Shown: positions 12,824 to 58,965 of the stretch, piece after piece
How the letters are laid out: each line of letters starts with the position of its first letter
Numbering within the stretch: the first letter of the stretch is position 1
Source of the DNA: a virus
Lineage: Duplodnaviria > Caudoviricetes
IMG/VR virus record: IMGVR_UViG_3300044522_000179
Span: 12,897 to 76,896 of that record
DNA: 64,000 nucleotides
Reading direction: 5' to 3' (one strand)
Position numbers and translations under genes: made by a program
The notes under the pieces: model-generated
Seen by the model: the letters and a program-made list of their open reading frames with translations, nothing else
What the model was told of the DNA's origin: nothing
The model's database searches: none

Positions 12824-13341
12824 TAATTACTCCCACTATGTATTGTATCATCAAAAATACTTCCACTGTTCAATATATTAATTTCTGCTTGCTCGCCCTC
12901 TTTGACATTAACTAAGTTAATAACTAGGTCTCCGCTTATCGGATCTATGTAGACTGACTTACAGTTTGGAACTTTAACTCCATCCACCAGATCATATCCT
13001 GTACCACAAACTGGCAGATGGTCAAATATGGATAAAGATAAAGACTTAAGATACGAATCAGATGCCTGGAGTCTTAAAACATTATTTGGATTGTATTGTA
13101 GATATAAATCTGTCAAATTTTTAATCGGGGTATAAATAACCTTTTGTCCATTTACCAGGTCATGCCTAGATATAGTGGCAAGTTCATATCCTCCAATATC
13201 CTCAAATATAAGGTCTGTCATTATTTCAATAGACATGGCCTCATCATTTAAAAGAATTAAATCTGGAGTAGCAATTTTTACTGAGTTATCTTGAGATGCA
13301 CTTTCTGGATATGGAAGATTTGCTGTTGCGCTTGTTGTCAT
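12823..13341 (-). CDS. putative minor tail protein
   Basis: Coupled ORF in tail operon. Confidence 0.5.
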   Translation of the reverse strand: MTTSATANLPYPESASQDNSVKIATPDLILLNDEAMSIEIMTDLIFEDIGGYELATISRHDLVNGQKVIYTPIKNLTDLYLQYNPNNVLRLQASDSYLKSLSLSIFDHLPVCGTGYDLVDGVKVPNCKSVYIDPISGDLVINLVNVKEGEQAEINILNSGSIFDDTIHSGSN

Positions 13342-16300
13342 TATAGAACCTCACTTAAAAATACTGTCATGTCTGGACCACTTGGACCTCTTGAAAAATC
13401 AATATTATATACAACGAACCTGCTTGATGCATTTGATGCCATACTTATTCCGTTTTCTTGATAGTCTAAACTTACTATGTCACCAAGTTGAATTGTAGGG
13501 ATTGCAAATATTTTAACTCCAATAGACTTTCTTGGCTTTGATGTTTTTTCAACCATCCACTTCATTAAGTTTGATGCTTCATCTTGTGATTGAATATACG
13601 GAGTAGTTAATGAAAAATCTTTTTTCCCATAAGTCATTCTGCTTAATTTTATATCTTGATAATCTTGTTTAAATTTAAAAGGATTTGAAATTAATTTATC
13701 TGCAACAAACTGTGGGTTTGATTCAAGAGTATTCTTATTAAAATATTCATCGACTGTTAGGTTGTTATCTGACTCCTGTGTAAAAGTAATTCCCTGAATT
13801 CTTAAATAGTTCCCACTTGTTTCATCTAGACTAAGTGCAGTGTCTGTTGCATTAAATATCATAAACTCAGCACCGTATGATCCTGCTCTAAAACCAGAAA
13901 CGACATATCCTTTTATTTTATTAAATGTTGGAGAGATTTTTGCAGTTAATGCTGGATAAGCCTTATCATATTTAAAATTAAACACTGCTGCTTCTCTCAT
14001 GATGCTGCCAAACTCTTCAAAATATATGTCATACTTTGGAGGTTCTGAAGAACCAATTCCAGAAAGATATGTATTTTGTATCAAACCACTGATTGCATAT
14101 TTTCTAAAAGACTCATTTGCGTCAATTTCAGAATCTCCAAATACAGAATTTACTGGTGCGCCCAAAGAGAATGATGTGTTTTGAGAATAGTTATTACATA
14201 GGGCATAAACATTTTCAAACATTGCTCTTGAAGACCCTCTTGTAAATAATGCTATGTTAGAGTATACTGGAAGTGGATCATTATCATCTACTGTTTTTAT
14301 TAGTTTGCCGTTAATGTATAAGTAGAATCTTCTTGTCTTTCCTATGTCTTCATATTCTACTGCTAAATCATATACCGTTGGATTTTCTTCAGCAAAAACT
14401 CTTGACTGTCCAGTAAATCTTCCATCATCAACAGTGATTGTAGCAAGACCATCCCAAAGTCCTACAGGAATGGCTTTGCCATTATTAGATTTTACTTTGT
14501 AGAAAAAAACATTACTAACGCTTTGTCTATCTGTTTCTGAAAGATTACCTAGTCCAAGTGCTGCTATCTCAAAATAATATCCTACATTTGTTGTTGGATT
14601 TAACATTACTGCAATTCCAGCAGAACCACCAGCAACGTTAATATTTTTATCTGGCGTAGAACCATTTACAACATAGTAAGTTGAAGATCCATTAGTTGTC
14701 TGACCACGGTCTTCATTGCTTTCAATCTTGCCAATAATTCTTAGTCTTGTTCCAAAGTGTTTATACTTTTTCCCTTCTAATGATTTATGAACATATGAAA
14801 TAAAATTTCTTGGCTTTTCTTTAGTAGCAAAGTTTGGACCAGTTAAAGAAAGTGCTGATGATTGAACCGAACCTGGAACTTGTTGAGTATTTGTGGTTAT
14901 CTCTCCTACAATAGAGGTTGACAGAAAGTTTTTAATAATTCCGCTTCTAGATGAAGTTCTTGCTAAAGCATCAGAAGATATTCCAGAGTCAGTTAATTTT
15001 CCAGATGAAGCAACGGTGGTTGCAGGTAAAGTTAAATCTTTTTGAAACAAATACTCTGATGACATGTAACAACCTTTAACATTGTCATCTGATTTCCAGT
15101 AGTCAGCAATTCCAGCATTATGTGCAACAACAGTAGTTCCAAATTGTCCACGACCATGCTTTTGAACTTCTCCATTTTGTAATCTAATAACACCAGATTG
15201 CTCAAAATATTTTGGTTCAGAATAAATTCTTACAAGGCCAGTTGGATATATCTTTCCATTGAATGGAAGTTTAGAAAAATAATTTTGATAGTCTTCTGTA
15301 GAAGTTATCCAAACATTTCCAAAACCAGTAACGTTGTATTGAACTGCATCATATTTTATAATTTCTCCTTGTGAATAAAAATATCCATTATATCTTGTAA
15401 TCCAATACGCTGCTTCACCAAGACTAAATGTATTATTAATTACAATGTTATTTTTTACAATTGGAACATCTGCCGAAAGATTAGAGTTTAGTGGTATAGC
15501 ACTAAGAACATATGCCGACTGTCTATTTACTTCGTTATTTATTGATTTTGTATTTTCTGTTCCAGAAACTTCCCACAATAGGGCAGGCTTATAAGTGTAA
15601 AATCTTTCATCATCTAAGAGGCTTGCCTGCCTTAGAGAACCGATAGATCTTTGTATATGTCTTGTTGTGTAATTAATTACTCCATCATTGTAGACATTGT
15701 TTGTCTGGCTAGATACAGAAATCACATTTGCAAGTTTAGCATTTGCAAGTGTTTTATTTTTAATTTCATTATCTTGAAACAGATCGTTAGTTCCCCTAAG
15801 TTCAAATGTTGTTGGTCTTTGTTCTTTTGTTGGCATAATATAGTCTTTGCTCATCATAACAAAGTTATTGTATTCATCAAAAAACATTGCAGTTTGAGTT
15901 GATACCGCTAAATCTTGAAGAATTTGTGCAACGCTGTTGTCTGGCCCAACAAAGAAATATGGAATTATTGTTTCTTTTTCATTTGCCACTCTTCTAAATG
16001 TGTAATTAGAAAAACCAATATGGTCTAATAAAAGAGAAACAGCAGAACTTACAGATACTTCTGTCATTAATATTTGTGGTGCAGTTATTGATTCTAGATA
16101 CCAATACATATCTCTTAAGGAAAGGGACACAGTTTTATTCATAAGATCCTGCTTGGGAAATGAATCGGCATATAGTGTTTTAATTGGAACCCAGTAATCC
16201 CAGCCTGCAACATCAACAATTACTTCATAAAACTTAAACTGAACATGTCTATTTATATATTTTGCTATAATACTTGACTGATTGTTTTCATTAAATGCTT

Positions 16301-17633
16301 GATCATAATCAAATATATTAATATTTCCATTAGATGCAATTAACTGTCCAACTGGTAAACCACTTAGCCCAAGATCTGATGCACTTTTATTAATTGAATA
16401 GTCTAAAGTTTTATCAGATACATTTAAAACAAGTCTTGGAGATATTTCTATAAGGTCAAAGGTTGAGTCTTTTACGTTCATTGAGTCAACGACAATTCTA
16501 ATTCCAGAGATATATTCAAACTCTCTATACTGTTCTTTTCCATCTAATGATTTAGTAAATACATTTGGAGATGTAGCATCTACTACAAAGTTTGTAAGTC
16601 TATCTACTGTCTCATCCTGGATATACCAACCATACTTTGGGGTTATGATTGTATAATCTGTACCGTTCCAAATATAAAACTTGCCTATATCGTTTTCATT
16701 TTCTTTAATAAGATAAGCATATCCAACTACAGACTGCTCAGGAAGCAAAGAAATACTTGAGTATACTTCTGCAAAAACAAAATTTGCTTTCCATTCATCT
16801 GGAACAATTAGTCCATAGGATATTTCAACATAGCCATCACTTTTGATAACTGAAGATCCGTCTACTCTTCGTATTGCGGGATTAAATGAGATAACATCTT
16901 GCCAGTTTGAATCTTTTAAGAACTGAATCTTCCATTTAGTTGGAACCTTTTGATTTAACTCTCCAAAGAATGGATCTGAAAATGCTCCAGTTGGGGATGA
17001 GAAGGGGCCTAGATTTTCTGTACCAGTATGGGTTTGCATCTTAACAACAACTCTATTGGCTGGAATTTTTTCTTTATAGACAACAAAAGGACAAGCATCT
17101 TCTATAGAGTTTTGAGAACCTCTTACCTTTGAGGCAATTCCGTATTCTTGACCAGACTCTGTTCTGTATGAAGTCCAATACTTAAACTTATCATTTTTAT
17201 CTGGCATATAGTACCTTGGCCTATCGGCCATAACTAGATTTGGGTGGTGCAGTTTTCCGTTCTCAAAGAACACTGCCTTGTTAATTCCAGATCTTGGTCT
17301 AAACTGATTAAAGCATTCCTCTAAAGAATAAAGAGTTTTTAACTTTTCTTTCTTTGTTAAAAATGTTGTTGGAATATTGTCATTGTCAAATGTTCCATCT
17401 ACAAGAGTATCTGCATCAGTTGCTCCTGTATAAAAATTTCCATCATCATTAATATCAAAACCTGTTGGAAGTGATGAATAAATAGATCCAGACTGCGTTG
17501 GTCTATATCTATAGTTACCAATATGTTTTATATTGGTTGGTATGTTCATATTCCATTCTGCTGTTATTATTGACTTGTTCCGTACCGTCGGAGAAGTCTC
17601 TAAAAATGTTTGCAGGTCTTTGTCTTCAAACAT
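13341..17633 (-). CDS. large tail tip/hub protein
   Basis: 1430 aa, second gene after the TMP; C-terminal PTIQLGDIV tail-hub motif. Confidence 0.7.
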   Translation of the reverse strand: MFEDKDLQTFLETSPTVRNKSIITAEWNMNIPTNIKHIGNYRYRPTQSGSIYSSLPTGFDINDDGNFYTGATDADTLVDGTFDNDNIPTTFLTKKEKLKTLYSLEECFNQFRPRSGINKAVFFENGKLHHPNLVMADRPRYYMPDKNDKFKYWTSYRTESGQEYGIASKVRGSQNSIEDACPFVVYKEKIPANRVVVKMQTHTGTENLGPFSSPTGAFSDPFFGELNQKVPTKWKIQFLKDSNWQDVISFNPAIRRVDGSSVIKSDGYVEISYGLIVPDEWKANFVFAEVYSSISLLPEQSVVGYAYLIKENENDIGKFYIWNGTDYTIITPKYGWYIQDETVDRLTNFVVDATSPNVFTKSLDGKEQYREFEYISGIRIVVDSMNVKDSTFDLIEISPRLVLNVSDKTLDYSINKSASDLGLSGLPVGQLIASNGNINIFDYDQAFNENNQSSIIAKYINRHVQFKFYEVIVDVAGWDYWVPIKTLYADSFPKQDLMNKTVSLSLRDMYWYLESITAPQILMTEVSVSSAVSLLLDHIGFSNYTFRRVANEKETIIPYFFVGPDNSVAQILQDLAVSTQTAMFFDEYNNFVMMSKDYIMPTKEQRPTTFELRGTNDLFQDNEIKNKTLANAKLANVISVSSQTNNVYNDGVINYTTRHIQRSIGSLRQASLLDDERFYTYKPALLWEVSGTENTKSINNEVNRQSAYVLSAIPLNSNLSADVPIVKNNIVINNTFSLGEAAYWITRYNGYFYSQGEIIKYDAVQYNVTGFGNVWITSTEDYQNYFSKLPFNGKIYPTGLVRIYSEPKYFEQSGVIRLQNGEVQKHGRGQFGTTVVAHNAGIADYWKSDDNVKGCYMSSEYLFQKDLTLPATTVASSGKLTDSGISSDALARTSSRSGIIKNFLSTSIVGEITTNTQQVPGSVQSSALSLTGPNFATKEKPRNFISYVHKSLEGKKYKHFGTRLRIIGKIESNEDRGQTTNGSSTYYVVNGSTPDKNINVAGGSAGIAVMLNPTTNVGYYFEIAALGLGNLSETDRQSVSNVFFYKVKSNNGKAIPVGLWDGLATITVDDGRFTGQSRVFAEENPTVYDLAVEYEDIGKTRRFYLYINGKLIKTVDDNDPLPVYSNIALFTRGSSRAMFENVYALCNNYSQNTSFSLGAPVNSVFGDSEIDANESFRKYAISGLIQNTYLSGIGSSEPPKYDIYFEEFGSIMREAAVFNFKYDKAYPALTAKISPTFNKIKGYVVSGFRAGSYGAEFMIFNATDTALSLDETSGNYLRIQGITFTQESDNNLTVDEYFNKNTLESNPQFVADKLISNPFKFKQDYQDIKLSRMTYGKKDFSLTTPYIQSQDEASNLMKWMVEKTSKPRKSIGVKIFAIPTIQLGDIVSLDYQENGISMASNASSRFVVYNIDFSRGPSGPDMTVFLSEVL

Positions 17634-18268
17634 TATACTTCTTCCAAAGTTATTGAGACGTTCCAGTAATCAAAGTTAGTTCCTCTTTTTTCAACAGAAT
17701 ATGAAAAATCACTAATAAACATTTCTATAAGTTGATTGTATTGCCCAAGGTGGTCGTATGGTTCTGATGTTCCCTTAAAAATTCCTTTTCTATCATATGC
17801 AAGAAATACCCAGAAAGATCCCTTATGTGAATCATACCACTCAAGCATATCTGCTCCACCTGCTCCGCCATCAGTTGTATAGGATACATATGGAGAGGCT
17901 CCAGTAACAGTATCAAAACTTGGAATGTTTGCATGGGATCTAGAAGGAATTAAATTCCAACTTGTACTTAGTGTTATTTTGTCTGCAATATGATATGATC
18001 TCATGCGACCATTAATCATTCTTTCACGCTTTTCAATTCTTTCTTCTGAAAAATCAAGTGGCTGTCTATTATCATCAGTAATAAACAAGAATTGATCTAA
18101 AAGGGTTTGGTCTTCAACACTTTCTGGGTCTACTCCAACTTCATATCCGTAGGGGATGTACAAACCATCTTTAAGAGTGCCAGAGTTTTCAGACCACAGC
18201 ATACCGCTTGGTCTGTTGTATTTCTTACGACCCTGAACATAGGTGACTCTTGGATCAATTTCTGGCAT
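17633..18268 (-). CDS. distal tail (Dit)-like protein
   Basis: Immediately after the TMP; RMINGRMR...WNVSITLEEV. Confidence 0.55.
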   Translation of the reverse strand: MPEIDPRVTYVQGRKKYNRPSGMLWSENSGTLKDGLYIPYGYEVGVDPESVEDQTLLDQFLFITDDNRQPLDFSEERIEKRERMINGRMRSYHIADKITLSTSWNLIPSRSHANIPSFDTVTGASPYVSYTTDGGAGGADMLEWYDSHKGSFWVFLAYDRKGIFKGTSEPYDHLGQYNQLIEMFISDFSYSVEKRGTNFDYWNVSITLEEV

Positions 18269-21200
18269 TTAATGACACCCCTCTAATTCTTCTATCATCA
18301 ACTTGTTTAATTGTTGACATCACTGCTTGTGCAATTTCATTTGGATTAGCATTTGTTTTTGCATTAACAGTTAATGTATATGTATTATTATACACTGCCC
18401 CGCTATTAAGATCTCCATTATTCATTTTTTTCATATGATCTACACCGTAAGAATCTACAGCATACTTGCTCATTACAAATTCTCCTGGAGTTAGCATTGC
18501 TGGCACTGTATCAGTACCCTTTGCAAAACCACCTGCAGCAAACATTTTTGGAACCATTCCGCCTGCACTTAGCCCCATAGACTTCATTGCTTGTCCAGTA
18601 TATCGTGCCGTAGATAGCGCTCCTGCTGTTCCACCTAAAGACTTTGTCATTGTTTTTGAACTTAAAAGCGCTCTTGACATATTAATTGCAATTGATTCTG
18701 GAGAAAGATTTCCTTCAGCAAGAGCAACGGCCTTGTTTAAACTTGTAGTATTTGTTGCTTTTCTAATAGCAAGCGCTGAAATTCCAGCAGCAACTTTTCC
18801 AATCTCTGCTGACTGACTTTCAAGTTCTGCAATGGCTGCTGCTGCTGCTAACGCTGCTGCAGTTGCTTCTGAAAGAGCAGCATTTGCTTCTGCTTCTGCA
18901 TCTGCTGCTGCTTTGTGAGCATCTTCTGCTTCTTTATTTGCTTCAGGTGATGCCTCTGGATCTGGAACATATGGCTTTGAAATTATTGGACTTGGTCCTT
19001 GTGCTGCAGAGTTACTTGATGTATTCCCTGGTTGAGCCTGATATGCTGCAATAAGTTTTGCTTGAATCTCTAGTGCAAGTTTCATAGAATCAACAAATGC
19101 TGCGCTCTTAATTAAGGCAAGGTCTACTTGATTTTTAATTGCTTCCCAAGCATCTTTTGTTAATCCAAGAACGGTAAGACCTTCTATATCTTTGTCTAAT
19201 ACTATTTGTCTTAAACGAATAAACTCTTGTGCTGGTTCTAGTTTATCTTCTTCAATTTTAAATATTTTATCTTGAAGATCTTTAATTTCTTTTTCAAGGT
19301 CTAGTCTAGTTTTTCCACCCTGAGTTTTTACTCTAGACAATTCATATTCTCTAGATTTTTCTATTGCATCTTTTTGTTTTGTTACAGCATCTGCTGCTGC
19401 CTGGGCTCTCATATCCTGTACGGCCCGTGCTGCTGCTGAAATATCGCCAGAGGTTAGTGCCTCAGCAAGAGTTAGTTGACCCTTTTGCTGATTAGAAATG
19501 GAAGAGTTTAACTTTTCTACTTCATCTAAAGCCTTAATTCTTTCATCATACTTATCATTAATTTTTTGCTCTTGATCTTCAATACCTTTTAGTGCTGCTT
19601 CTTTATCATCTATCTCATATTGAATTGCTGCAATTGTATTTTGTGCCTCTTTAATTATTGCATTTTGTGATTTTGTATCTATTTTAAACTGTATGTTTAG
19701 TGCTGTCTCTTGAACATCAAAAGCCTGCATTGCATTGCCAAACCCCTTATCAAATAAACCTTGCATAAATTCAACGGTAGACTTTAATTGATTTAGTCTT
19801 GTATTAAACAACTCAACTAATTCACTTAACTCTCCTAATGCAGCCATAATAACTGCTGGTGGTGCTCCAATTGTTTGCAACCTCTTTACTTGTGCTTCTT
19901 TTGCTTCTAACTGACTTTCCATTAATTTTAAGTTTTCATCTGATGAAATTGCAAAAGCATCTTCTGCTCCATACTTTGATCTTAGTCTTCCTTCTTGAAT
20001 TGTGTTTTTCTTAAATTGTGCGATATCTGTTTTTACCCCGCTAATTGCTGCATATTTTTCTTTTTCTTTTGTTAAACGCTTATAATTATTAATTAAAGTT
20101 TCTAGATTTTTATTACTTACGCCATTAGCAATTGCTTCTGCAATTCCTGCATCAGTAACTAATTGGTATGCCTCTGCTACTGGAACTCCAAGGTTTGCCA
20201 ACTTATTAAAGGCAGTGGATTGATTTTCAATAGCCTTGAGGTCTGCCTCCATGCTAGACTTCCAGTCACCCATAGTTATTGAGTTTAATGCTTCCTGAAT
20301 ATTTTTAGCATCTTCTTTTAGTGCAACAATATTTCCTTTATTGTCAAACTTAAACAATGAGTTCTTTTTCTGTTCATATACCTTTGGATCCATGCCGACG
20401 ATTAGTTCGATAAAGTCTTGGCTTGTACCTAAGCCTCTTAGATCGTTTTCTATACCGCTAAATACACTGATGGTCTTGTTACCACCAAACAGTTTATCTA
20501 ATGCCTTACGAGAAGCACCCCAGCCTTCTGTGACCTTGATCTGGTTCATTCTTACATCTCTTAGTTTCTTTACTAAGTCATCTAGTGGTGAGGACTGGAC
20601 TTTGTTTCCATCGCCATTTGGGGTTGTTCCTGTTGGAGCCTTTGTTCCTACTGATGTATTATCTGTAACGGCTTTGTATCCTTGTGCTTCTCTATATTTT
20701 TGTATTTTATATGAAATACTACCGCTGACTCCTGCTCCTCCATGTGGTGCTGGCTCTTTGAGCCAAGCCTTATAGTCTTCACTTGCTTCAATTTGTGGTT
20801 CTGGAATATTAATTATTGATGCAATAGTAGTTGTATATACAAGTTTTTGATCATCTGTTAATGTTTTAAAATATGCTTCGTCAAAGTTTGCGGTCCCTTT
20901 AAGTTGTGGCATTATATTATAAACAGCATCTATTGTCTTTGGCTTTTGTGTTTCAATTGCATCAAGAACTCGATTTAGTTCCTCGTATGCTGTTTTATTT
21001 TTTGGATCTACATAAAAACTAACCATAAAGTCTGATGGTATAACTGTATTAAGATTATTTAATTTGATCATGTTCTTTGTAAAATCAAGAGCATCTGAGT
21101 CTTTTTCAAATGCTTCTACCTTAGTTATAAATTTTGTTTGAACTGTTTTATTAATGTCACCCTTTGCATTAAGAATGTTTTGTGCTGCTACACCTATTGA

Positions 21201-24200
21201 CTCAGATGTTGCACCAGAAAACTTTGTAATAATGTTCATCATCTTTGGTGCAATGTCTTTATTATCTGTTGCCATTTGCAAAAGAGTTCTAAATACGGCT
21301 GGAGGAATATCTCCACTTGCCATCTTTGCTTGAATTAAAAACTCTTGTCCACTATCAATAAGACCATCTTTTCTTAGATTTTTTGATTGCTGATTTACAG
21401 TATCTATATATGCTAACTGGTTAGGATCATTTTTGTATTTTGCAGTTGTGGCTTTTTTCATTCCAGACATCATTGCTTCTTGAAGTCCACCAGCACTATT
21501 GTATTGAGATACTATGTCTCCTTGCATTTTTGCTTGGGCTGCAGTTAGTTGATCTCTTTTTCCAACTTTGCCTTTTTCTTTATCTCCTAAATACTCTTTC
21601 TCTAGTTCTAACGCCTCATTAATTTTACCCTGCAGCCTTAACTCTTCAATTTTTTTCTGATAATACATATCAAGTGAATCTAGCATTTGTTTATTTTGTT
21701 CCATTGCAATTTTAGCATCTACTGCGTAGGTTGCTCCAAGAACTGCTGCCTCTTTTGCATATTTCTTTGAGGCAAAGTATCCACCAATTGCTCCTACTGC
21801 TGTTCCAATTCCAGCACCTATAATTGCTCCTGCTAGAGTTCCTGCAGGTCCTAGTGCTGTTCCAATTCCAGCACCTGCTGCTGCTCCACCAAGAGCCGAA
21901 GCGCCTATACCTAGTCCTTGTGTTACTTTTTGTCCAGCAAGTTGTTGCAAAACACCAGCATTTTTTACATTATCAGCACTAGTTTTCATATTCGTTGCAT
22001 TTGCATTTACCATATTTATTCTAACATTCAATGGATCGTTAACAAGGTTTTCTCCATTTGGTCCAAGCAAACTTTCTAATTGAGCAATAACCTTTATACC
22101 AATAGACATATCTCCTGCTTGTCTAGCAGCATTCATAGCCAAACTTTTTGCCTGTGACATATCCATAGCGCCAGACATAATTGCTGCAGAAAGTTGGCCA
22201 CCTAAATCTTTCACTGCAACATTTCCCTTACCTTCAGCGTTCTGTTTTGAAATTCTTGCAGTCAAAGCCTTTCCTTCTGCTGTTTGAGCATATGCTTCTC
22301 CATATGTAGTCTTACCAGTTGCTGGGCCAAGCATTGCAAAAGAATTTTTTCTTCTTAGGTCCATTTGTTCTGAGGCTGTTGTCTTACCACCAAATTTTGC
22401 TATAGTCTGTAATGCAGATGTAGATCCTTTAAACTTTTCACCCTCTTCTAAAACCTGATCTGCTGCTTTATCAAATGACATTCTCAAGGCAGCAAATGAT
22501 CCAACTGTTGCAAGAAGTCCTACTGCTAAGGCTGAAGCAGGACTTTTTAACATTGGAATTATCATAGACAATCCCATAAGTGGCATCATTAATTTTTGTG
22601 AGATTTCTCCAACTTTACCTGGTACCATAGAACCAATCATTGCTGCACCTGCTGCCATTCCGACACCGCCAGCAATTCCCATACCACCCTTACCTGCTAC
22701 TTTTGCATTTTGTCTATTATTTTTAAGTCTTTGCAATTTAGTGGTTTCAAATTTACCATTTGCCATTGAAGGTCCCATTGGCGTTCCAGAAACTGAAGGT
22801 GCTGGTGTAAACTGTGCTGCTGCTCTTTCACTAATAATTCTTTTTTGATATGCTACAGAGTTTGCTAATTTAGTTCTTCTTTCCATTTGTCTACGCATAG
22901 ACTTGGCATCTGCATCCATTGGACCCATGCCGTATAGTTTAGTTCTTGATGCTGCCATCTTTGCTTGTGTTTTTGCTTCTGCCCTTTGGCGCTTTTCCAT
23001 TTGTCTACGTAAAGATTTAGCATCTGCATCTATTGATCCCGTTCCATACAAAGCAGTCCTTGATGATGCTGCTGCGGATTGAGATATTGTTTTTCCAATA
23101 GTGGCACCAGCAGCCTTGGCTTTTGCAACAGATCCTTTTACTCCCGCAAGAATTGCGTTTACAGTTGCATTCTTTGATCCTGGGGCATTTGCTTTTCCAA
23201 CAATTCTTCCCTTGGGGCCTTGACGAACCGATGAAGCAACACTCGCTGGAGCAAGTCTTGTATCCTTTATGCTGCCAGAGTCTGATTTTAACTTTCCGTT
23301 ATTTGGCTTTGTTGGTATTGGCTTTAGGTTACCCTTTTTGTCTTCAAGTACTTCATCTGGCTTTACCAAAATTGAACGATGGAAGTTATAAACCTTTTTC
23401 CAGTCTGCGTTTAAGCCAGCCTGAAGTCTCTTATACATATCTTCATAAACTTTTTTGGCTGGATCTCCAGTCTTAAGTTTAAAGCCATCTATAGTTTTTC
23501 TTAATTTTGGAAGAGTTCTATTGATTTCTTCTTTTATTTTTCTTTCATATTCATCTGCAGACTGAATATTTTGTGGAATATCAGCAGTGGCATTTCCAAA
23601 CCAGAAAGGAGAGCCATTAGCATTTGGTCCTGTAACACCCTTAAAGTTATGCATAGCAATTGCTTCCATTGATGGAAGACCACTTGAATAGGCTCTTTTA
23701 CCAGAGGCTGTATCAAATACACCTGCAGCGCCAACATCGGCTACAACATTTCCTCCAAGGTTGCCCTTCTTAAGGTCTTTGTCTCCACGAAGGGCTGCTG
23801 CTACTGTTTGCTTAATATATTCTTTTTCAGTAAAAGTTTTTGGCATTGTGTTTGGATCAAATCTTGAGTCATACGGAGATTCCAAAACAATAATTTTTCT
23901 TTTTTTCTTAACATCTGGTTCATCAATATCTGTAGGATCAATCATTGTTTTGATTGTTTGTCTTGGTGCTAGTAAGCCTTGTGCTCTAGCAATCTCAGTT
24001 CCTCTTTTTTCTGCTATAGCGTCTAACTCACTCAGCATTGGTTTTACAAATACTTTTGACCCATCTGGCTTTGTAAATATTCCGCCGATGGTTGACATAA
24101 AATTACTTCTACCAGAACTCTGTGTTTCTTGAACACCAAAGTTTGTAGGCTTCTTTGCTCCAAAGGCAGTTTGAGATGCCTCTATTGCAACTGCTCTTAG

Positions 24201-27200
24201 TTTTTCTTTGTGCTCCATTGCTTTTTCAAGATCAAGCAATTGTGGGGCTGATAGCGGTGCTGCAACCTTTGTTTTCTTTGCTGCCTTTGTGCCTTGAGAA
24301 ATTACAGGGGTTGTTCCTGCTCCAAGTCTGTTCATATTAACTACTGTTCCTTCTGGAACTTGAACTCCATGGTATGTGCCTGCTGGAAGAGTTATAGTTG
24401 ATGATCCAGTTACTACTCTTTTTTTACTATTAACTCTTTCATCAATGCTGTAGTCTAAGATTAAACCTTGTCTTTTTGCCTCATCAAGAATTTTTCTACT
24501 TTCATCAGGTGTAGTTCCTAATCCCTTACCCATATTAAATCTATAGTCTGTTGCATACAATCCTTGAGATTTTACATAGCCTGGGTCGTTTGGACTTATT
24601 ATTTTTGGAATTTCTTTCTTATATAAATTGTCAACTATTGAATCATTTATAAATGGGCTTTTAGATTCTTGAATTGACTTTAAGAATGCATTATCTAGCG
24701 CTTGTGCCTGTACTGCAGACATTCCAGATGGAGACCATTTGCCTGCTCCACCCTTAATCCATTCATCTATAAACTGTTGCTTAGGTACTCCACCAGTTAG
24801 GCTAGGCATTGCTTTATTCATCCACTCAGGGAAGTTGAACATAAGACTGTGCTTTGTTGTTGTTACTGGTGGCAAACCTTGTGATATTAGAACCTGTTCC
24901 ATAGTTATAAGTTTTAACTTTTGATCGGGAGACATATTAGGATTGCTCTTAATAATGTCTGATATTAGTCTTGGCTCGCTGCGTCCGCCTACGTGTGTTT
25001 CATTAATTGCAACTGATTTAGCATCTGTTGTTGCTGCTACTTCAGGAGCAAATGCTAATCCTTGAACTCTTCCGCCTGCAACCATGTGTGCAATGGCTGG
25101 TCTATTTGCTGGATCCTGTGCTGATTGTTGAGGGATTACTGCTTCGCCAGGAGTTAGGTCTGCGTTTACGCTATCTTTATTTCCAGTTCCTGGAACGCTT
25201 GTTGTTCCTTTACCATATTTTTTAGGTGTAGGCAAGCGCTTTCCAGCACTGGGACCCGTAAATCCTATTTGTGCTGCAATGGCTCTTCTGTATGCATTTG
25301 CCAACATGTTAACTGCTGCTGTTTCAGAAGTAAAAGTTTGTCTTAATCTTTGATGAACCTGATCAAGTGATGCTGCAACTGCTGATGCTTCTAACTGTTC
25401 TTTAGTTAAATAGTTTGTCTGCTCGCCTAATATTTGACTTGATTGGCCTGTTCTGTTGTACATAGATTTTAATCCTGCAAACATTTTAATTATGTTAGCA
25501 ACAGCGTTTGCAATCAAACCAAATCCCATTAAAAGAACTGGTCCAACACCAGCAAGGGCAACTGTAAGAATAGTTAAGAATTTTTTAGTACCGTCTCCTA
25601 AGTTATTAAACTTGTCAAGAATTTTTCCAACAAACTCAACAATAGGGGTTAATGCTTTTAAGAATTGTTCTCCTACTGGAGCAATAGCCAATTTTAAATC
25701 TTCCATTGATTTTTTAAATTTGTATGTTGTTGTATTCTGAATTTTATCTAATTCTCGTTGTGACAAGATTGCAAGTTCTTCTGTAGTTGCTTTTGTTAAT
25801 GATAAGACTCTCTGTGCTTGTGTACCCTGGGTTGTTACGTTTTGGAACAGTGTGGAAAGTCTTGAAAACTGGAACTTACCAAATAGTTGTTCAATAGCAC
25901 GAGCACGGTTAAGTGGGTCAAGAGTATCAAGTGCTTGTGCAAAACCAACAACAGTTGCTTTAATGTCTCCTTGGTTGGCTTCAACAATTCCTTTAATATT
26001 TACGCCAAGTTCTCCAAGAAACTTGCTTGCCTTTGTTGATGGATTAATTAAAGATGCAAGACCAGACTTAAGTGCGTTGGCGCCTTCGGATGCATTGATT
26101 CCACCTTCTTTCATTGCTGTAAGGAAAAATGCTAAGTCTTCAACGTTTCCACCAAGTTGCTTAACAACTGGTCCAGCCTTTGGAATTGCTATTGTTAAAT
26201 CTTCAATAGATACTACAGTCTGGTTTTCAACTGCGTTAAGGAAATCAATTTTGTTTGCAAGATCTTCTGCTGCAACGCCAAAAGCGTTAGTTACAGAAAT
26301 TGTTGTCTCTAATGCCTGCGTTTGTTCTACTCCGCCAAGAACTGCAAGCCTTGTTGCCTGTACAACTTGTGCAACTAATTCTGCACCCATCTTGCCCATT
26401 GCTGCAGCATCTGCAGCCATTTTCATTGTGTCTTCTATTGCAACGCCATACTTAGTATATTCTGTTGCAAGTTTTTGAATTTGCTTAACCATTGCATCAG
26501 TTTCTGCTTGTGTTGTAAACATTTCTCCATACACACGCTTAAACCTAATTGCCTGCTCTTCAAGTTTCATAAATGTTTTTGAAGCAACTGTACCAAGCAT
26601 TGCAAGTGGAACAGTAAAACCAACCATTAACTGACGTCCTGCCCACTGAGTATTCTTACCAAAGTTTAGGAGATTGGTTGATCCTTGTCTTAATAATTGA
26701 TTAAGTAGTTGTTGTCTCTGTGCAGCGATGGCTGTTTGTGTACCCAGATTTTTCATATCAAGCGTTAGAGGTCTTACCGCAATTGCTTGTAGTGCTCCAT
26801 TGGCACCTCTGCCCATCTTTACATACTGGGTCTGTATATCTTTTACACGCTCTCGTGCAACTTTATTTAATGTTTCAAATTCAGATCTAAAGAATCTTCC
26901 AAAAGTTTTTGTTGCTGCTCCAGTATATCTAAAATATTCTCTAGATGTTAACTTGTTTCTTTCTAAAGCATTAGTAAAAGACTCTGTACTTGATGTTACT
27001 GTTCGCATAGATGCTTGGAATTTTCCAGTAGCATTTATGCTGTTCATCAAGTTCTGTGCTTGATTTGCTGCTACCGCTGAGGCTGCGGTACCAGACTTTG
27101 CCATTTGTGTATGGAAGGCTGATATTTGACGTTGTAGAAGTTTTAGACTTGCTAAAGCATCAGACGTATCAATATTTACATGAATATTGGATTCTACATC

Positions 27201-27206
27201 AGCCAT
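18255..27206 (-). CDS. tape measure protein with internal kinase-like domain
   Basis: 2983 aa, Ala/Gln-rich helical; TP901-type core (AGPVVKQLGG...GINASEGANALKS); follows tail chaperones. Confidence 0.92.
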   Translation of the reverse strand: MADVESNIHVNIDTSDALASLKLLQRQISAFHTQMAKSGTAASAVAANQAQNLMNSINATGKFQASMRTVTSSTESFTNALERNKLTSREYFRYTGAATKTFGRFFRSEFETLNKVARERVKDIQTQYVKMGRGANGALQAIAVRPLTLDMKNLGTQTAIAAQRQQLLNQLLRQGSTNLLNFGKNTQWAGRQLMVGFTVPLAMLGTVASKTFMKLEEQAIRFKRVYGEMFTTQAETDAMVKQIQKLATEYTKYGVAIEDTMKMAADAAAMGKMGAELVAQVVQATRLAVLGGVEQTQALETTISVTNAFGVAAEDLANKIDFLNAVENQTVVSIEDLTIAIPKAGPVVKQLGGNVEDLAFFLTAMKEGGINASEGANALKSGLASLINPSTKASKFLGELGVNIKGIVEANQGDIKATVVGFAQALDTLDPLNRARAIEQLFGKFQFSRLSTLFQNVTTQGTQAQRVLSLTKATTEELAILSQRELDKIQNTTTYKFKKSMEDLKLAIAPVGEQFLKALTPIVEFVGKILDKFNNLGDGTKKFLTILTVALAGVGPVLLMGFGLIANAVANIIKMFAGLKSMYNRTGQSSQILGEQTNYLTKEQLEASAVAASLDQVHQRLRQTFTSETAAVNMLANAYRRAIAAQIGFTGPSAGKRLPTPKKYGKGTTSVPGTGNKDSVNADLTPGEAVIPQQSAQDPANRPAIAHMVAGGRVQGLAFAPEVAATTDAKSVAINETHVGGRSEPRLISDIIKSNPNMSPDQKLKLITMEQVLISQGLPPVTTTKHSLMFNFPEWMNKAMPSLTGGVPKQQFIDEWIKGGAGKWSPSGMSAVQAQALDNAFLKSIQESKSPFINDSIVDNLYKKEIPKIISPNDPGYVKSQGLYATDYRFNMGKGLGTTPDESRKILDEAKRQGLILDYSIDERVNSKKRVVTGSSTITLPAGTYHGVQVPEGTVVNMNRLGAGTTPVISQGTKAAKKTKVAAPLSAPQLLDLEKAMEHKEKLRAVAIEASQTAFGAKKPTNFGVQETQSSGRSNFMSTIGGIFTKPDGSKVFVKPMLSELDAIAEKRGTEIARAQGLLAPRQTIKTMIDPTDIDEPDVKKKRKIIVLESPYDSRFDPNTMPKTFTEKEYIKQTVAAALRGDKDLKKGNLGGNVVADVGAAGVFDTASGKRAYSSGLPSMEAIAMHNFKGVTGPNANGSPFWFGNATADIPQNIQSADEYERKIKEEINRTLPKLRKTIDGFKLKTGDPAKKVYEDMYKRLQAGLNADWKKVYNFHRSILVKPDEVLEDKKGNLKPIPTKPNNGKLKSDSGSIKDTRLAPASVASSVRQGPKGRIVGKANAPGSKNATVNAILAGVKGSVAKAKAAGATIGKTISQSAAASSRTALYGTGSIDADAKSLRRQMEKRQRAEAKTQAKMAASRTKLYGMGPMDADAKSMRRQMERRTKLANSVAYQKRIISERAAAQFTPAPSVSGTPMGPSMANGKFETTKLQRLKNNRQNAKVAGKGGMGIAGGVGMAAGAAMIGSMVPGKVGEISQKLMMPLMGLSMIIPMLKSPASALAVGLLATVGSFAALRMSFDKAADQVLEEGEKFKGSTSALQTIAKFGGKTTASEQMDLRRKNSFAMLGPATGKTTYGEAYAQTAEGKALTARISKQNAEGKGNVAVKDLGGQLSAAIMSGAMDMSQAKSLAMNAARQAGDMSIGIKVIAQLESLLGPNGENLVNDPLNVRINMVNANATNMKTSADNVKNAGVLQQLAGQKVTQGLGIGASALGGAAAGAGIGTALGPAGTLAGAIIGAGIGTAVGAIGGYFASKKYAKEAAVLGATYAVDAKIAMEQNKQMLDSLDMYYQKKIEELRLQGKINEALELEKEYLGDKEKGKVGKRDQLTAAQAKMQGDIVSQYNSAGGLQEAMMSGMKKATTAKYKNDPNQLAYIDTVNQQSKNLRKDGLIDSGQEFLIQAKMASGDIPPAVFRTLLQMATDNKDIAPKMMNIITKFSGATSESIGVAAQNILNAKGDINKTVQTKFITKVEAFEKDSDALDFTKNMIKLNNLNTVIPSDFMVSFYVDPKNKTAYEELNRVLDAIETQKPKTIDAVYNIMPQLKGTANFDEAYFKTLTDDQKLVYTTTIASIINIPEPQIEASEDYKAWLKEPAPHGGAGVSGSISYKIQKYREAQGYKAVTDNTSVGTKAPTGTTPNGDGNKVQSSPLDDLVKKLRDVRMNQIKVTEGWGASRKALDKLFGGNKTISVFSGIENDLRGLGTSQDFIELIVGMDPKVYEQKKNSLFKFDNKGNIVALKEDAKNIQEALNSITMGDWKSSMEADLKAIENQSTAFNKLANLGVPVAEAYQLVTDAGIAEAIANGVSNKNLETLINNYKRLTKEKEKYAAISGVKTDIAQFKKNTIQEGRLRSKYGAEDAFAISSDENLKLMESQLEAKEAQVKRLQTIGAPPAVIMAALGELSELVELFNTRLNQLKSTVEFMQGLFDKGFGNAMQAFDVQETALNIQFKIDTKSQNAIIKEAQNTIAAIQYEIDDKEAALKGIEDQEQKINDKYDERIKALDEVEKLNSSISNQQKGQLTLAEALTSGDISAAARAVQDMRAQAAADAVTKQKDAIEKSREYELSRVKTQGGKTRLDLEKEIKDLQDKIFKIEEDKLEPAQEFIRLRQIVLDKDIEGLTVLGLTKDAWEAIKNQVDLALIKSAAFVDSMKLALEIQAKLIAAYQAQPGNTSSNSAAQGPSPIISKPYVPDPEASPEANKEAEDAHKAAADAEAEANAALSEATAAALAAAAAIAELESQSAEIGKVAAGISALAIRKATNTTSLNKAVALAEGNLSPESIAINMSRALLSSKTMTKSLGGTAGALSTARYTGQAMKSMGLSAGGMVPKMFAAGGFAKGTDTVPAMLTPGEFVMSKYAVDSYGVDHMKKMNNGDLNSGAVYNNTYTLTVNAKTNANPNEIAQAVMSTIKQVDDRRIRGVSLNARN
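22876..23064 (-). repeat. internal ~25-aa duplication in TMP
   Basis: SRTALYGTGSIDADAKSLRRQMEKR / SRTKLYGMGPMDADAKSMRRQMERR. Confidence 0.85.
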
Positions 27207-27224: not shown

Positions 27225-27548
27225 TTAGTTATTTGCAAGGTTGCCGAGTAGTGATGCGTCAGAAAGTTTAATTCCTGATGCCTCTTCGACAATCTTGTAT
27301 ACTGTTGGAAGATCTAGATTTTCTTCTAGGGCTTCCTTGTCTTCTGCCAATTCTGGCTTGTATTGTTTCATTGCGATTTGAACACAGTCCATTAACAAAT
27401 CCATAGACTTTTCGTTATCTTCTGCGACCTTTGCAATGTCTTCAAACTTCTTCATAAACGGACGAAGTAGAGAAATCTTAAGTGGTCTTACCTTGATCTT
27501 TGTTCCGTCGATCAGAGTTACTGTCTTTTCTTCAGTGGCGATTGCCAT
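27225..27548 (-). CDS. tail assembly chaperone, short (G-like)
   Basis: Between MTP and TMP; strong AAGGAGG SD; paralog of the next gene's N-half. Confidence 0.75.
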   Translation of the reverse strand: MAIATEEKTVTLIDGTKIKVRPLKISLLRPFMKKFEDIAKVAEDNEKSMDLLMDCVQIAMKQYKPELAEDKEALEENLDLPTVYKIVEEASGIKLSDASLLGNLANN

Positions 27549-27604: not shown

Positions 27605-28285
27605 CTATTCGTAAACCTCATAATCAAGGCCCATGCCAATACCAAACCCTGCTCTTTCAGCATTTACTCCTTGTAGGGCCAGAATATCATTTCCATTTCC
27701 TGTTGCACCCTTGCTAAACACTCTAGCCTTCATATCTTCCCATTCATTACCGCTACCAGAATTTTTGTCTAAATCTACTCCCTGCATAGCAGCAGCAAAC
27801 TTTTTATCACTGTAGTCTAATTCTCTTTTTATCTTTAGTGTGGCTGTTAGTTCTTGCATAGACATTGATGACTCTAATTGATCATAGTCTTTCCATATAC
27901 CGATTAAAAAAACCTCTGACTCTAGTTTTGCTAAGTCTAAGGTTTCCCATGTTGATCCACTGTCAACTGCCTGATTTTTAACAGTGTCTTCTGACTTCTC
28001 GTTAATTTTGATTCCTGCTGCAACATCAATAACATCATAGATAGTTGGTAAGTCTAGGCTATCTTCTAAGTCTTCAATAGTTTTAATTGATGGGCAATAT
28101 TGTTGCATTGCAATAAGAGCGCATTGAGCCAAAATAGATATTGATTCATCATCACTTTTTGCTTCTTTAATTTTTTCAAATGTTTCTAAAAATTCTCTTA
28201 GGTATTTTATTTTTAATGGGGCAGCAACAATAACTCTATCATCTACTAGTGATATTTTCTTTGTATCATATATTTTTGTTGCCAT
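27605..28285 (-). CDS. tail assembly chaperone, long (GT-like)
   Basis: N-half aligns with 27225..27548; C-half W..Y..LE..MS..EL; leaderless start MATKIY. Confidence 0.72.
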   Translation of the reverse strand: MATKIYDTKKISLVDDRVIVAAPLKIKYLREFLETFEKIKEAKSDDESISILAQCALIAMQQYCPSIKTIEDLEDSLDLPTIYDVIDVAAGIKINEKSEDTVKNQAVDSGSTWETLDLAKLESEVFLIGIWKDYDQLESSMSMQELTATLKIKRELDYSDKKFAAAMQGVDLDKNSGSGNEWEDMKARVFSKGATGNGNDILALQGVNAERAGFGIGMGLDYEVYE

Positions 28286-28304
28286 TATATAAGTATACCA
28301 AACA

Positions 28305-28336
28305 GAAAGGCCCAACCCCGAAGGATTGAGCCTCTC
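28305..28336 (-). terminator. intrinsic terminator after major tail protein
   Basis: GAGAGGCTCAATCC-TTCG-GGGTTGGGCCTTTC 14-bp stem with UUCG loop, then TGTTT. Confidence 0.8.
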
Positions 28337-36668: not shown

Positions 36669-39600
36669 TTAGGCTGGGGTCTCTACGAACTGACTCCATT
36701 TTACGTCAGTAAATATAGTATATGCATACTCTTCAAAACGAACTGGTCTATCATCATCTACAATAATTTTGTTTGTGCCCGTATAACTCTTATAAACATC
36801 TGAAGGGTTTACACCATAATAACTTGTTTCTGATAAGACAAGAACCTTATTCCAGTTAAAAGATGGACTATCCCAGAACTCCCAGTCAAGGGGCGAAGAC
36901 CCCAAAACCTTAACTCTAAACCAAGGTCTTTCTGCTATGTTCTGAACTTCTTGTAGATTAGTAGACTGATAGTATGAAAGGCTGTTAAATAGTAGTGGTC
37001 CAGTTAATCTTACTGCCCCTTCAAAAAATGAAAAATTAAGACTGTTTGCAAAATTAATCCCAAGGAATCCCCACTCTTGAAGAGTTATTACTGGCTCTTT
37101 TACTATTTTTCCATTCCAATAAAATCCAATACCGTTTTGGACTAGGCCAGTATTTGCATCTATTGCGTAAATTTTTGCTCTGCGTCCAGAAGGATCATTA
37201 GCAACCATGTAAAATTTTATGTAAGAATCTTTGCTTTGGATTTCAAATATCTGTGTTGGTGCATATGGGAAATAGTCTCCGTCAAACCTTACGGCCATTT
37301 GCATTGCTATAGCCTTAAATCCTTCGGCTCTGCTTTCATTTACAGGAATCATAAGACCTCTATTAACTAATGGATCATACCTTCCTTTTAATTGAATTCC
37401 GCTTGTTTTGGTTAAATAAAGATACGGAGATGATCCTGGATAGATTGCAAAAGGATTATTCTTTTTAAAGTTATAATAAATTCCAGTCTTTGTATATGGA
37501 TAAACAGATGTTCCAAACCTTGTTCCAATTGGACTAGCATCAGATTCATTAAATGCTTGTGATGCATAAGAAAGTTTTTTAATTAATACATTGTTTGTTT
37601 CTGAATTTTTTACATTCATTTCTATGTGTGTAACAATAGACAAGTCATTAAAGTCTACTCCAGTTGGTGGGTATATAATCATATTATCTACAACTTCATA
37701 TTTTGTTGTCATCCAGTCTGAACCAGGAACTAATACTCCATCTCTTGAAGGTCTTTCTGTTTTTGTAAAATAATAGTATGTTTGGTTTGCACCCAATTCT
37801 GTATATTGAAAAGTTACATAACTTTTTACAATTGATCCATCTGTGTCATATTTATATTCTTTTGCTATTTTATTTTTTAAATCATCGTAATCATTGTATC
37901 CAGTAAAAAGGTAATTGTCTAATGATGTGTATGTTCTTTGAACTGGGGTTCCGTATTCATCTGATAACTCTGCATATGTCCAAGCCTCTGGCTCTGTTTC
38001 TATTGCTATAGTCTTTGATGGTATTGGGTAATCAATATTAAACTGAATAAAGTCAAGATCAAAATATTGGTCCCCTCGTTTATCAAGAACGGATTCAGCA
38101 AAATATGTTAGTGGAAGTTGATCTTCCCAATATGCGCTTGCAGATACAGCAAGTTTGTATGTATCAAAAACTATCTCTGGTAAAAGAGTATAACTTGCAA
38201 CATGGTCTAAAAGGGAATCCTCTTCAGCAACAACCACATCTCCACCAGTAAGTGCTCCATTTACAGTGTATGTTCCAAGAGGCAAATGAAAAGATGTTGT
38301 ATCTATTCCTCCGTCTATGTTGATTAACTGGTTATTTTGGTAAATAGCAAACAAGTCTTCATTCCATACTGGAACACCTATCTCATTAAACAAAGATCTA
38401 ATTTTTTGAAAGTTATATTCTGTACATAGTCCTACATTGTATATTTTTCCAGTAAAAGTTGATAGACCGTTCTTGTCTCCACCAACATACATCCTTAGGT
38501 CTGATAAAGATCCAAAAAAGTCTGATGCTGGGTTTCCAAATCTTGATACAAATGCTGGAATGTTTAAGCCTATGTCTACCAACTCTCCTGGCTCAGCGAC
38601 TAAAGGAGAATAGATTGTTTCTGATATTCCGTTATAATTAATAATATAAGATATTTGATTATTTAAAAGTTGTATCTTGAAATAACTATTTGTATTTTCT
38701 TTTTCTATTTTAAAAAGTGTTTGGGCTGAACTTGAGGTTTGTGGCAATCTAAAACAACCATAGAAAGCAGAAATGGGAGTTTTTATAAAATCAAAGTTCT
38801 TAAAAAACAAATATCCAGAAACATTATTCCAAGAAGTGTTTGGTCTAAAGGAAAAAAAGTTTCTTGTATCTGATGATTGAACTAGACCACAATCTGACAA
38901 AAGTTCTTTTTCTGTTTTTGATGACAAGATTGTTTCTGGAAGTGGGTGAGACAAAACAGAAAGAGACTTATTCACAACTAATGTATTGTCATTAAAGGCT
39001 TGACTCCATGAACCTACCTTTGGATATGAGTAGTTTGAGGTGTAGTCTGCAAATGAGTAATCAATAAAAACAGATGTTCCACTATAAGATGTATTAATAT
39101 TTTCTGGAATATCAACGCCTTGCCCAAATACAAACCTTCTTTTTGCAACAGCAGTTGCAACAATGTATGGATAAATTCCAACGCAGTCAACCTCTATTGG
39201 ATATATATCATCATATGCGTAAAAGCCTATCCAGTCTTGATCCTTAAGACTTTCATTTAACATGGAAGGTAAAGAAAGTGACTCAGTTAAATAGTTTAAA
39301 GAAACAACTTCTTGGCCATTTATTACAAGAGATGCAGTGTCTTTTCCAACACGCATGTGAACCAGCATTGGCCTTGTCCACTCACCAACATAGTATGTAC
39401 CATAGTTATCTCCTATCTTTAATCCTATTGATGGTCCATCAACATATATTCCATCTTCTGATGCAATTGGACCAATAATTCTTTTCCTGTCGTTACTGTA
39501 TGAATTTATTCTAAGCCAAGTTTCAAAAGTATACTGCTTAAATTTTCCAGACTCATTTAAAAATCCAGAACCAGGAACTATAAGGGAGGGCAAATCTGTA

Positions 39601-58945: not shown

Positions 58946-58965
58946 GGATACATTATCTCACGGTA

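Follow-up and report, generated by a model that had tools for sequence, protein, structure and literature searches.

Both enzymes embedded in tape measure proteins (TMPs) and kinases delivered by the virion are known ideas. TMPs leave siphophage tails at infection, and some of them, in mycobacteriophage TM4 and others, carry embedded peptidoglycan hydrolase motifs; these catalytic modules are cofactor-free, are thought to act as the TMP exits the tail, and work on the wall outside the cytoplasm. The polyvalent proteins of phages and plasmids contain embedded kinase domains which, in the sections of Iyer et al. 2017 (PMC5512222) used here, are predicted, on the model of the T7 kinase, to reach the cell along with the DNA and modify host proteins. 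Here we analyse a predicted protein-kinase-like domain within a giant TMP of an uncultured freshwater phage, encoded on a stretch of 64,000 nucleotides (the window; positions 12,897 to 76,896 of IMG/VR virus record IMGVR_UViG_3300044522_000179, Caudoviricetes). We propose, with a rough probability of 0.55, that the domain is a competent phosphotransferase of a new, TMP-restricted atypical family resembling CotH, type II PI4K, MavQ and HipA/CtkA, and that it is delivered with the TMP. What would be new is an ATP-dependent enzyme family confined to TMPs, which the phage may deliver into the cell together with its DNA.

Conserved kinase motifs within a tape measure protein

A single open frame of 2983 codons on the minus strand of the window holds all the motifs under study (Table 1). 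The original prediction had placed five kinase motifs, in order, between 23370 and 24120, and the translation contains each of them literally and in that order: the glycine-containing IGGIF, VFVK with a candidate ATP-binding Lys (K1055), an AE with a candidate helix-C Glu (E1066), a catalytic-loop-like GDKDLKKGNL (with D1142, D1144 and N1149) and a DFG-like VADVG (with D1157 and G1159).

To describe conservation, we aligned 238 copies of the domain, comprising the window's copy and 237 others that cover most of it. Every copy keeps K1055, N1149 and D1157, together with G1042, P1081, Q1133 and F1203; D1144, G1032 and A1167 are kept in 237, E1066 and S1034 in 236, G1159 in 235, D1142 and R1140 in 233, and G1041 in 196. 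The conservation of the K, E, D, N and D residues, on which the original prediction had staked its validity, thus holds in 236-238 of the 238 copies. Thinning the set to less than 62% pairwise identity left 56 members, with identities to the window's copy down to 27%, and an alignment of 54 of these (A1, from which the pieces of P0150 and P0152 were left out) shows the same picture. Among 22 full-length TMP relatives (alignment A2), 47 of the domain's 277 columns are invariant (17%), as against 1-2% in the protein beyond it (4 of 210 columns for residues 1291-1500 and 7 of 330 for residues 1501-1830). The family also has features of its own. Specifically, the Gly loop is preceded by an invariant G1032-x-S1034, the helix leading into the catalytic loop carries Q1133 and R1140, D1142 provides a second Asp, N1149 and D1157 are spaced by 8 residues, and A1167-S-G follows the DVG.

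The protein that surrounds these motifs is, as judged by Pfam, NCBIfam, PHROGs and gene order, a TP901-type tail TMP, which agrees with the earlier assignment of the kinase-like segment to a tape measure protein. PF10145 matches residues 244-443 (E 1.4e-24, 87.5 bits against a cut-off of 33.2) and TIGR01760 residues 210-553 (E 9.5e-30, 103.8 bits against 28.8); both are above their cut-offs, and nine PHROG tape-measure families match residues ~8-727. The gene also has the expected place in a tail block, with chaperone genes ahead of it and tail-tip genes behind it. The N-terminal core is the most conserved part of the protein, with 306 of 640 columns invariant in A2, and the kinase-like domain is placed between hydrophobic segments I and II. 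Two plus-strand open reading frames (ORFs), 23123-23476 and 23761-24132, overlap the kinase region and are taken as spurious because they run antisense to this strongly conserved frame.

The predicted fold is that of a kinase

An AlphaFold2 (AF2) model built without an alignment reached a predicted local distance difference test (pLDDT) score of 41.9 and was used for no search; with the 54-row alignment A1, the model has a pLDDT of 92.5, a predicted template modelling score (pTM) of 0.90 and no stretch below 50. Its N-lobe presents, in order, the GG-loop strand, the strand KVFVKPM with K1055, a helix with E1066 and two strands, the second ending in a conserved LES. Then come a helix ending at R1140, the loop GDKDLKKGN, short strands, D1157-V-G and five helices, the C-lobe being helical (helices at model residues 167-264). 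This order of strands and helices is the topology of kinases, in which the catalytic loop follows helix E. In the model, the structural hallmarks of the protein-kinase-like fold can be recognized: a bilobal arrangement with a beta-rich N-lobe containing one helix and a helical C-lobe; by order of elements, a Lys on strand 3 and a Glu on helix C; and a D-x4-N loop after helix E (D1144-LKKG-N1149) followed by a metal-binding D-x-G (D1157-V-G1159).

Structural comparison points the same way. When the model was compared with 48,161 PDB representatives using VIA-align, 23 chains reached Z >= 8 and the best 50 rows were all kinase or pseudokinase chains. CotH led (5jda; Z 11.6, 220 residues aligned, root-mean-square deviation (rmsd) 4.5 Å), followed by PI4KIIalpha (4hnd; 10.1), MavQ (7m7a; 9.9), Fam20C (9.4), Vps34 (9.2), CtkA (9.1), actin-fragmin kinase (8.4) and HipA (8.3), with RIO and Bud32 at about 7 and classical kinases at about 6. 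Models that have no true match typically peak at Z 7-8 in this method; the present model lies above that range and its list is uniform. Realignment of Foldseek's best 1000 chains agrees (CotH 11.6, CtkA 10.6, PI4KIIbeta 10.3, MavQ 10.1), and Foldseek itself gave three PDB matches at E <= 0.001, the rows listed being kinase entries throughout. The AF2 model, VIA-align and Foldseek together indicate that residues ~1020-1280 almost certainly adopt a kinase-like fold, as had been supposed from the motifs.

A new sequence family apparently confined to giant TMPs

In contrast to the structure, the sequence of the domain leads to no described family. It has no NCBIfam or PHROG match, and the models for classical protein kinases (PF00069 and PF07714) match neither the domain at E <= 10 nor any of the 54 members at E <= 1. 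PF00454 (PI3/PI4-kinase) likewise fails to match the domain or the 54 members at E <= 1, despite structural Z values of 8-10, and PF18640 matches none of the 54 at the same threshold. PF08757 (CotH) matches neither the domain nor the 54 members, and a six-frame search of the whole record gave nothing at E <= 0.01, while four control genomes were matched. Rows labelled 'protein kinase C' in the PDB sequence search were rejected, as the match is to a C2 domain, and a profile of the whole TMP found nothing among PDB sequences. Because no known kinase-family model matches, we regard the domain, on sequence and model together, as a new atypical sequence family of the protein-kinase-like fold. By its structural neighbours, it is nearer to the atypical CotH/PI4KII/MavQ/HipA/Fam20 group than to classical protein kinases.

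Relatives of the domain are numerous and, as far as the searches reach, they point to a family confined to giant TMPs of uncultured phages. A phmmer search with residues 1014-1300 against 1.84 billion cluster representatives (clusters at 50% identity) found 156 proteins at E <= 0.001, 118 of them at E <= 1e-30. A word-seeded search with residues 730-1300 against proteins of 1640-5221 residues gave 315 matches, and nearly all of the best 120 carry PF10145. The domain is present in all 260 stored relatives; 234 of these are longer than 1500 residues, and the remaining 26 are either cut within the domain or have TMP-type flanks. The TMPs of the relatives are mostly 2000-4500 residues long and come from metagenomes. 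Six profile matches to proteins of 143-531 residues were considered as free-standing kinase relatives, but all lie on contigs of at most 6.6 kb and were taken as fragments. No match was found by tblastn of the domain against 50,697 GenBank phage records, and none for the window's domain among 185,579 species genomes. An alignment of the whole TMP does match 10 contigs in metagenome bins among the species genomes, with the labels Flavobacterium, Chitinophagia, Lishizhenia, Flavipsychrobacter, Acidimicrobiaceae (2), Aquiluna, Bifidobacterium and Methylococcus (2). These labels disagree, and therefore we draw no host from them.

The same fold is found in other large phage proteins among predicted viral structures (BFVD), at E 1.9e-5 to 8.7e-4. 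These matches include proteins named as ADP-ribosyltransferase (Mycobacterium phage Onyinye, 1340 residues), HK97 portal (1201 residues) and PI3K/PI4K domain protein (614 and 490 residues); a 'head morphogenesis' protein of 1140 residues matches weakly (E 1.5e-2). BFVD entries A0A6B9L6W7, A0A6J5PWC9, A0A6J5MJB0, A0A6J5S481, L7TJZ0 and R4T6E8, large phage and haloarchaeal-virus proteins of which some are labelled uncharacterized, have a domain with this fold at E 1.9e-5 to 6.7e-4. Kinase-like cargo may be widespread in virion proteins beyond TMPs. In the ESM Atlas, the neighbours of the domain are unnamed bacterial clusters of 300-350 residues (Spirochaetota, Chlamydiota) at scores of 0.96-0.97, with a rickettsial Sca4/LepB_N cluster at 0.93 (rank 30); HMMER searches link none of the Atlas clusters to the domain, and we treat these as leads only.

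Comparison with known kinases

The best structural neighbour, the Bacillus cereus spore-coat kinase CotH (5jda/5jd9), is an atypical kinase-like fold that does not have the classical substrate-docking lobe. It shares 8% identity with the domain and is a free-standing cellular protein, in contrast to the virion part considered here. PI4KIIalpha/beta and the Legionella enzyme MavQ align at Z 9.9-10.3 over 211-217 residues, and the catalytic loop R-x-D-x-D-x4-N resembles what we take to be the PI4KII loop RNTDRGNDN. Both MavQ and LepB enter another cell as enzymes injected by a secretion system; here the vehicle would be a phage tail and the recipient a bacterial host. Of the toxin kinases HipA and CtkA, the latter is the best Foldseek match (E 4.5e-4; Z up to 10.6) and HipA reaches Z 8.3-8.5. 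Both are bacterial kinases that switch off cell functions, but the TMP domain has no antitoxin context, and the HipA loop presumably carries a His that has no counterpart in it.

The TM4-type hydrolases likewise place a catalytic module in a TMP, with the difference that a kinase depends on ATP and must therefore get to the cytoplasmic side. The kinases of polyvalent proteins share the concept of a kinase in a giant multidomain phage protein that enters the cell. As described in those sections of Iyer et al. 2017 (PMC5512222), that family has lost the whole C-terminal subdomain and carries an insertion separating its conserved His and Asp. The TMP domain keeps a helical C-lobe and has no His in its loop RGDKDLKKGN, so that, judged on the described features, it appears to fall outside that family. 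The word 'tape' is absent from that paper, and in full-text searches of mainly non-subscription literature we found no description of a kinase domain in a TMP.

Proposed function and alternatives

The conserved residues suggest how the domain would work. The phosphates of ATP would be held by K1055, on its beta-strand, and by E1066, on the helix that comes next; in the loop behind the helix ending at R1140, D1144 would serve as the catalytic base and N1149 as a metal ligand, and D1157 of the DVG would bind Mg. Residues ~1020-1280 probably form an active, catalytically competent phosphotransferase. We lean, by a small margin over even odds, towards its acting in the newly infected cell. Having left the tail with the TMP at infection, the domain would phosphorylate some host target, at the inner membrane or close to it, ahead of phage gene expression. 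A virion-borne kinase active upon injection, serving host takeover or anti-defence, had already been suggested in the original prediction. We propose the cytoplasmic side of that membrane because it is the only side with ATP, and the placement of the domain between hydrophobic segments would allow this. Candidate targets are proteins, membrane lipids and envelope precursors. Among the nearest folds are both protein kinases (CotH, Fam20C, HipA, CtkA) and lipid kinases (PI4KII, MavQ, Vps34), and the phosphatase and cytidylyltransferase-like neighbours that some relatives have, though rare, hint at small-molecule or envelope chemistry.

A more far-reaching version of this proposal, which we put forward tentatively and consider possible rather than probable, is that giant TMPs serve as injection devices whose enzyme slot is exchangeable. 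As a first-strike effector, the kinase would begin to work only seconds after adsorption, from the cytoplasmic face of the inner membrane. By phosphorylating an envelope precursor, a membrane lipid or a host protein bound to the membrane, it would clear a path for the DNA or neutralize a defence before phage genes are read.

Several observations weigh against a delivered phosphotransferase. The domain matches nothing in Pfam even at E <= 10; HipA_2 (PF20613) appears below threshold in one of the 54 members (E 0.014), PF07804 is not among the matches, and searches of PDB chains by sequence and by profile gave chance-level rows only. The structural evidence has its own weaknesses: the best Foldseek E is marginal, TM-scores are 0.22-0.39 with large rmsd, and the VIA-align superpositions have an rmsd of 4-5.5 Å at 8-15% identity. 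It is from the succession of elements in the model that we deduce the pairing of K1055 with E1066 and the site geometry, and the 8-residue spacing of N1149 and D1157 is unusual, classical kinases having about 13 residues between the catalytic Asn and the DFG Asp. A cultured phage with the domain was not found among the GenBank records, which leaves no link to a phenotype. Finally, delivery poses physical problems. The periplasm has no ATP, and the domain must therefore reach the cytoplasmic side to work after ejection. TMPs are generally taken as multimeric, and a tube lumen of ~4 nm should be too narrow for several folded 30-kDa domains next to one another, so the domain would be stored unfolded or stacked.

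The alternative that best survives is that the kinase works in the producer cell during tail assembly, phosphorylating the TMP, its chaperones or other virion proteins, much as CotH acts on the spore coat; this could keep a 3000-residue TMP soluble, set its register or prime ejection. The best structural match (CotH, Z 11.6) is indeed a kinase of structural proteins, and it is established that ATP is certain to be present during assembly. Moreover, a Ser/Thr/Lys-rich stretch and a conserved SRT.LYG repeat lie 55-110 residues past the domain in 53 of 220 full-length TMPs, offering possible cis substrates, but the repeat is missing in the other 167. Close TMP relatives (those on contigs L016, L019 and L021) do not have the kinase domain, which is therefore not needed for assembling such tails, and the other cargo found in the same proteins (M23, CHAP and LysM domains) acts on the host envelope, which argues that the slot holds entry tools. 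We consider a role in assembly unlikely.

It is less probable still that the kinase-like fold performs some other chemistry, such as the AMPylation carried out by SelO or the glutamylation by SidJ, or that it binds nucleotide as a switch or structural plug. SidJ does appear at Foldseek ranks 18 and 50, and the failure of kinase family models and the unusual N-to-D spacing would fit such a divergence, a common fold alone not establishing function. However, pseudokinases usually lose one or more of the K, E, D, N and D residues, and the full set is retained in 236-238 of 238 copies, which is the signature of phosphotransfer; SelO-type chains are also not among the best 50 VIA-align rows, an absence that is no exclusion. 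Chance resemblance within a structural spacer, which short and common motifs such as DLKxxN and VFVK in a long TMP might produce, can be rejected with great confidence given the near-invariance of the residues in 238 copies at 27-60% overall identity, the confident bilobal AF2 model and the kinase folds at all 50 of the best 50 VIA-align neighbours.

If the more far-reaching version is right, the kinase would be the first ATP-dependent enzyme that a TMP is known to carry, and a new virion-borne branch of the CotH/PI4KII/MavQ-like kinases. The fate of the TMP after it leaves the tail is an old question, and the embedded activities known so far are cofactor-free wall-cutting enzymes. A conserved and apparently active kinase-like domain implies that part of the TMP reaches a compartment containing ATP and acts there. 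The domain would thus offer a handle on TMP topology during DNA entry, on the storage of folded domains in the tail tube and on effectors that act before transcription, and it brings a further sequence family into the group of atypical kinase-like folds.

A variable cargo slot and a second conserved module

The motif 'G..VP....D.VPAMLTPGEFV' is present twice in the TMP. Its first copy lies directly after the conserved 640-residue N-terminal core, so that the core resembles a complete short TMP with a 2300-residue extension. In this copy, P672, G673, G675, D678, G687, E688, V690 and P692 are invariant in A2; in the C-terminal region, which holds the second copy, 28 of 103 columns are invariant. 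In some relatives (P0156, P0185 and P0152), the region of the LTPGE-motif profile recurs beyond the kinase domain, which is thereby bracketed. The usual starting point of the kinase domain, seen in most relatives, is near residue 750, immediately behind the first LTPGE motif.

What follows this motif differs between relatives. The TMPs on contigs L016, L019 and L021 belong to the same lineage (45-65% identity to the window's TMP over the N-terminal core), and have, where the kinase domain would be, unrelated inserts of 451, 361 and 464 residues. Other relatives have additional domains: a cytidylyltransferase-like domain in P0062 (residues 804-930; PF01467 occurs in one of the best 120 proteins of the word-seeded search), a HAD class-B acid phosphatase after the kinase (P0199, residues 1458-1591; L017:13079-15223) and, further along in the protein, an M23 peptidase (P0257) or CHAP and LysM domains (P0178 and P0008). 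Because unrelated inserts and other domains occupy the same place in relatives, the stretch between the first LTPGE motif (residue ~690) and the hydrophobic segments (residue ~1510) is, by these comparisons, an exchangeable cargo slot. Its possible contents within this one TMP lineage are a kinase, a cytidylyltransferase-like domain, a HAD phosphatase, M23, CHAP and LysM.

The original prediction had also suggested a second cargo domain at about 24150-25050, encoded just ahead of the kinase-like domain. The suggestion is partly supported: a conserved module, domain X, does lie there, within the variable cargo slot, and is found by phmmer in 68 of the 260 stored relatives. Searches of Pfam, NCBIfam, PHROGs, PDB sequences and the ESM Atlas gave no match to domain X (best Atlas score 0.84, not informative). 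In the copies compared by position, it ends just ahead of the kinase-like domain. In A2, 13 of 294 columns of this region are invariant, among them H738, G741, L788, F792, N797, G806, W816, K823, D838, D855 and G895. A predicted complex of domain X with the kinase domain scored 0.01 against a mark of 0.32, and we draw no conclusion from it. On the other side of the kinase domain lie the tandem repeats with the LYG.G..D motif. Of 220 full-length kinase-bearing TMPs, 53 have this motif, in every case 55-110 residues past the kinase domain, and the repeat could be a cis substrate or a docking site.

Table 1. Positions of the TMP gene, its parts and its neighbours (window positions unless a contig is named; aa, amino acid residues)
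Feature	Residues (aa)	Positions	Strand	Basis or remark
TMP gene (P0001)	2983 aa	18255..27206	-	open frame, family matches, gene order
N-terminal TMP core	1-640	25287..27206	-	most conserved part; Pfam and NCBIfam matches
Hydrophobic segment I	541-579	25470..25586	-	Kyte-Doolittle 19-residue mean <= 2.13
First 'VPG..D.V...LTPGE.V' motif	663-696	25119..25220	-	sequence; marks start of variable cargo slot
Domain X, core	~734-960	24327..25007	-	conserved module upstream of kinase-like domain
Protein-kinase-like domain	~1020-1280	23367..24149	-	extent from conservation and AF2 model
Gly-containing loop/strand IGGIF	1040-1044	24075..24089	-	conserved Gly; strand starts at model residue 29
VFVK	1052-1055	24042-24053	-	sequence
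Candidate ATP-binding Lys in strand KVFVKPM	K1055	24042..24044	-	conservation and model strand E38-44
AEKRG	1065-1069	24000-24014	-	sequence
Candidate helix-C Glu	E1066	24009..24011	-	conservation and model helix H47-62
Catalytic-loop-like GDKDLKKGNL (D1142, D1144, N1149)	1141-1150	23757..23786	-	conservation; follows model helix H114-127
DFG-like VADVG (D1157, G1159)	1155-1159	23730..23744	-	conservation
Tandem 'SRT.LYG.G..DA.AKS.RRQ.E' repeats (pair, ~38 aa each)	~1380-1445	22872..23069	-	sequence
Hydrophobic segments II	1509-1578	22473..22682	-	hydropathy
Glycine-zipper hydrophobic segment III	1788-1813	21768..21845	-	hydropathy
C-terminal 'VPAMLTPGEFV' motif copy	2882-2913	18468..18563	-	sequence
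Two chaperone-like ORFs directly upstream of TMP		27605-28315 and 27225-27548	-	both match phrog_10504, E ~1e-20
Tail-tip genes downstream of TMP		17633-18268 and 13341-17633	-	gene order
Accessory ORFs (oxygenases, sulfotransferase-like, GlcNAc-transferase-like, collagen-repeat)		40398-40907, 43641-44240, 53309-54262, 58214-59829	-	
Accessory ORFs, continued		60448-61074	+	
Slot inserts of relatives		L016:12077-13429, L019:2028-3110, L021:12155-13546		no Pfam match

Genome context

The two ORFs directly upstream of the TMP gene look like paralogous chaperone genes, and their position suggests a role as tail assembly chaperones; the longer of them additionally matches phrog_10474. Downstream, the 1430-residue product of the larger tail-tip gene matches phrog_10359 'minor tail protein' (E 5e-58). 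Portal, protease and head protein genes lie upstream of the TMP, and no terminase large subunit was recognized among the ORFs scanned. The IMG/VR record is 76,896 bases long with a CheckV completeness of 71%, and it encodes a DNA polymerase, ribonucleotide reductase, RecA, a DnaB-like helicase and a primase. Within the TMP itself, PF13488 matches the region of hydrophobic segment III weakly (residues 1771-1814, E 0.004, below its cut-off).

Near the portal gene, upstream and with a 128-residue ORF between them, there is a 1237-residue ORF (36669-40382, minus strand) that matches nothing in Pfam at E <= 1e-4 or in PHROGs at E <= 1. The window also encodes two 2OG-Fe(II) oxygenases, a sulfotransferase-like protein, a GlcNAc-transferase-like protein and collagen-repeat proteins, one of which has a CBM5/12 match, and several tail-fibre-like ORFs lie at 46898-50997.

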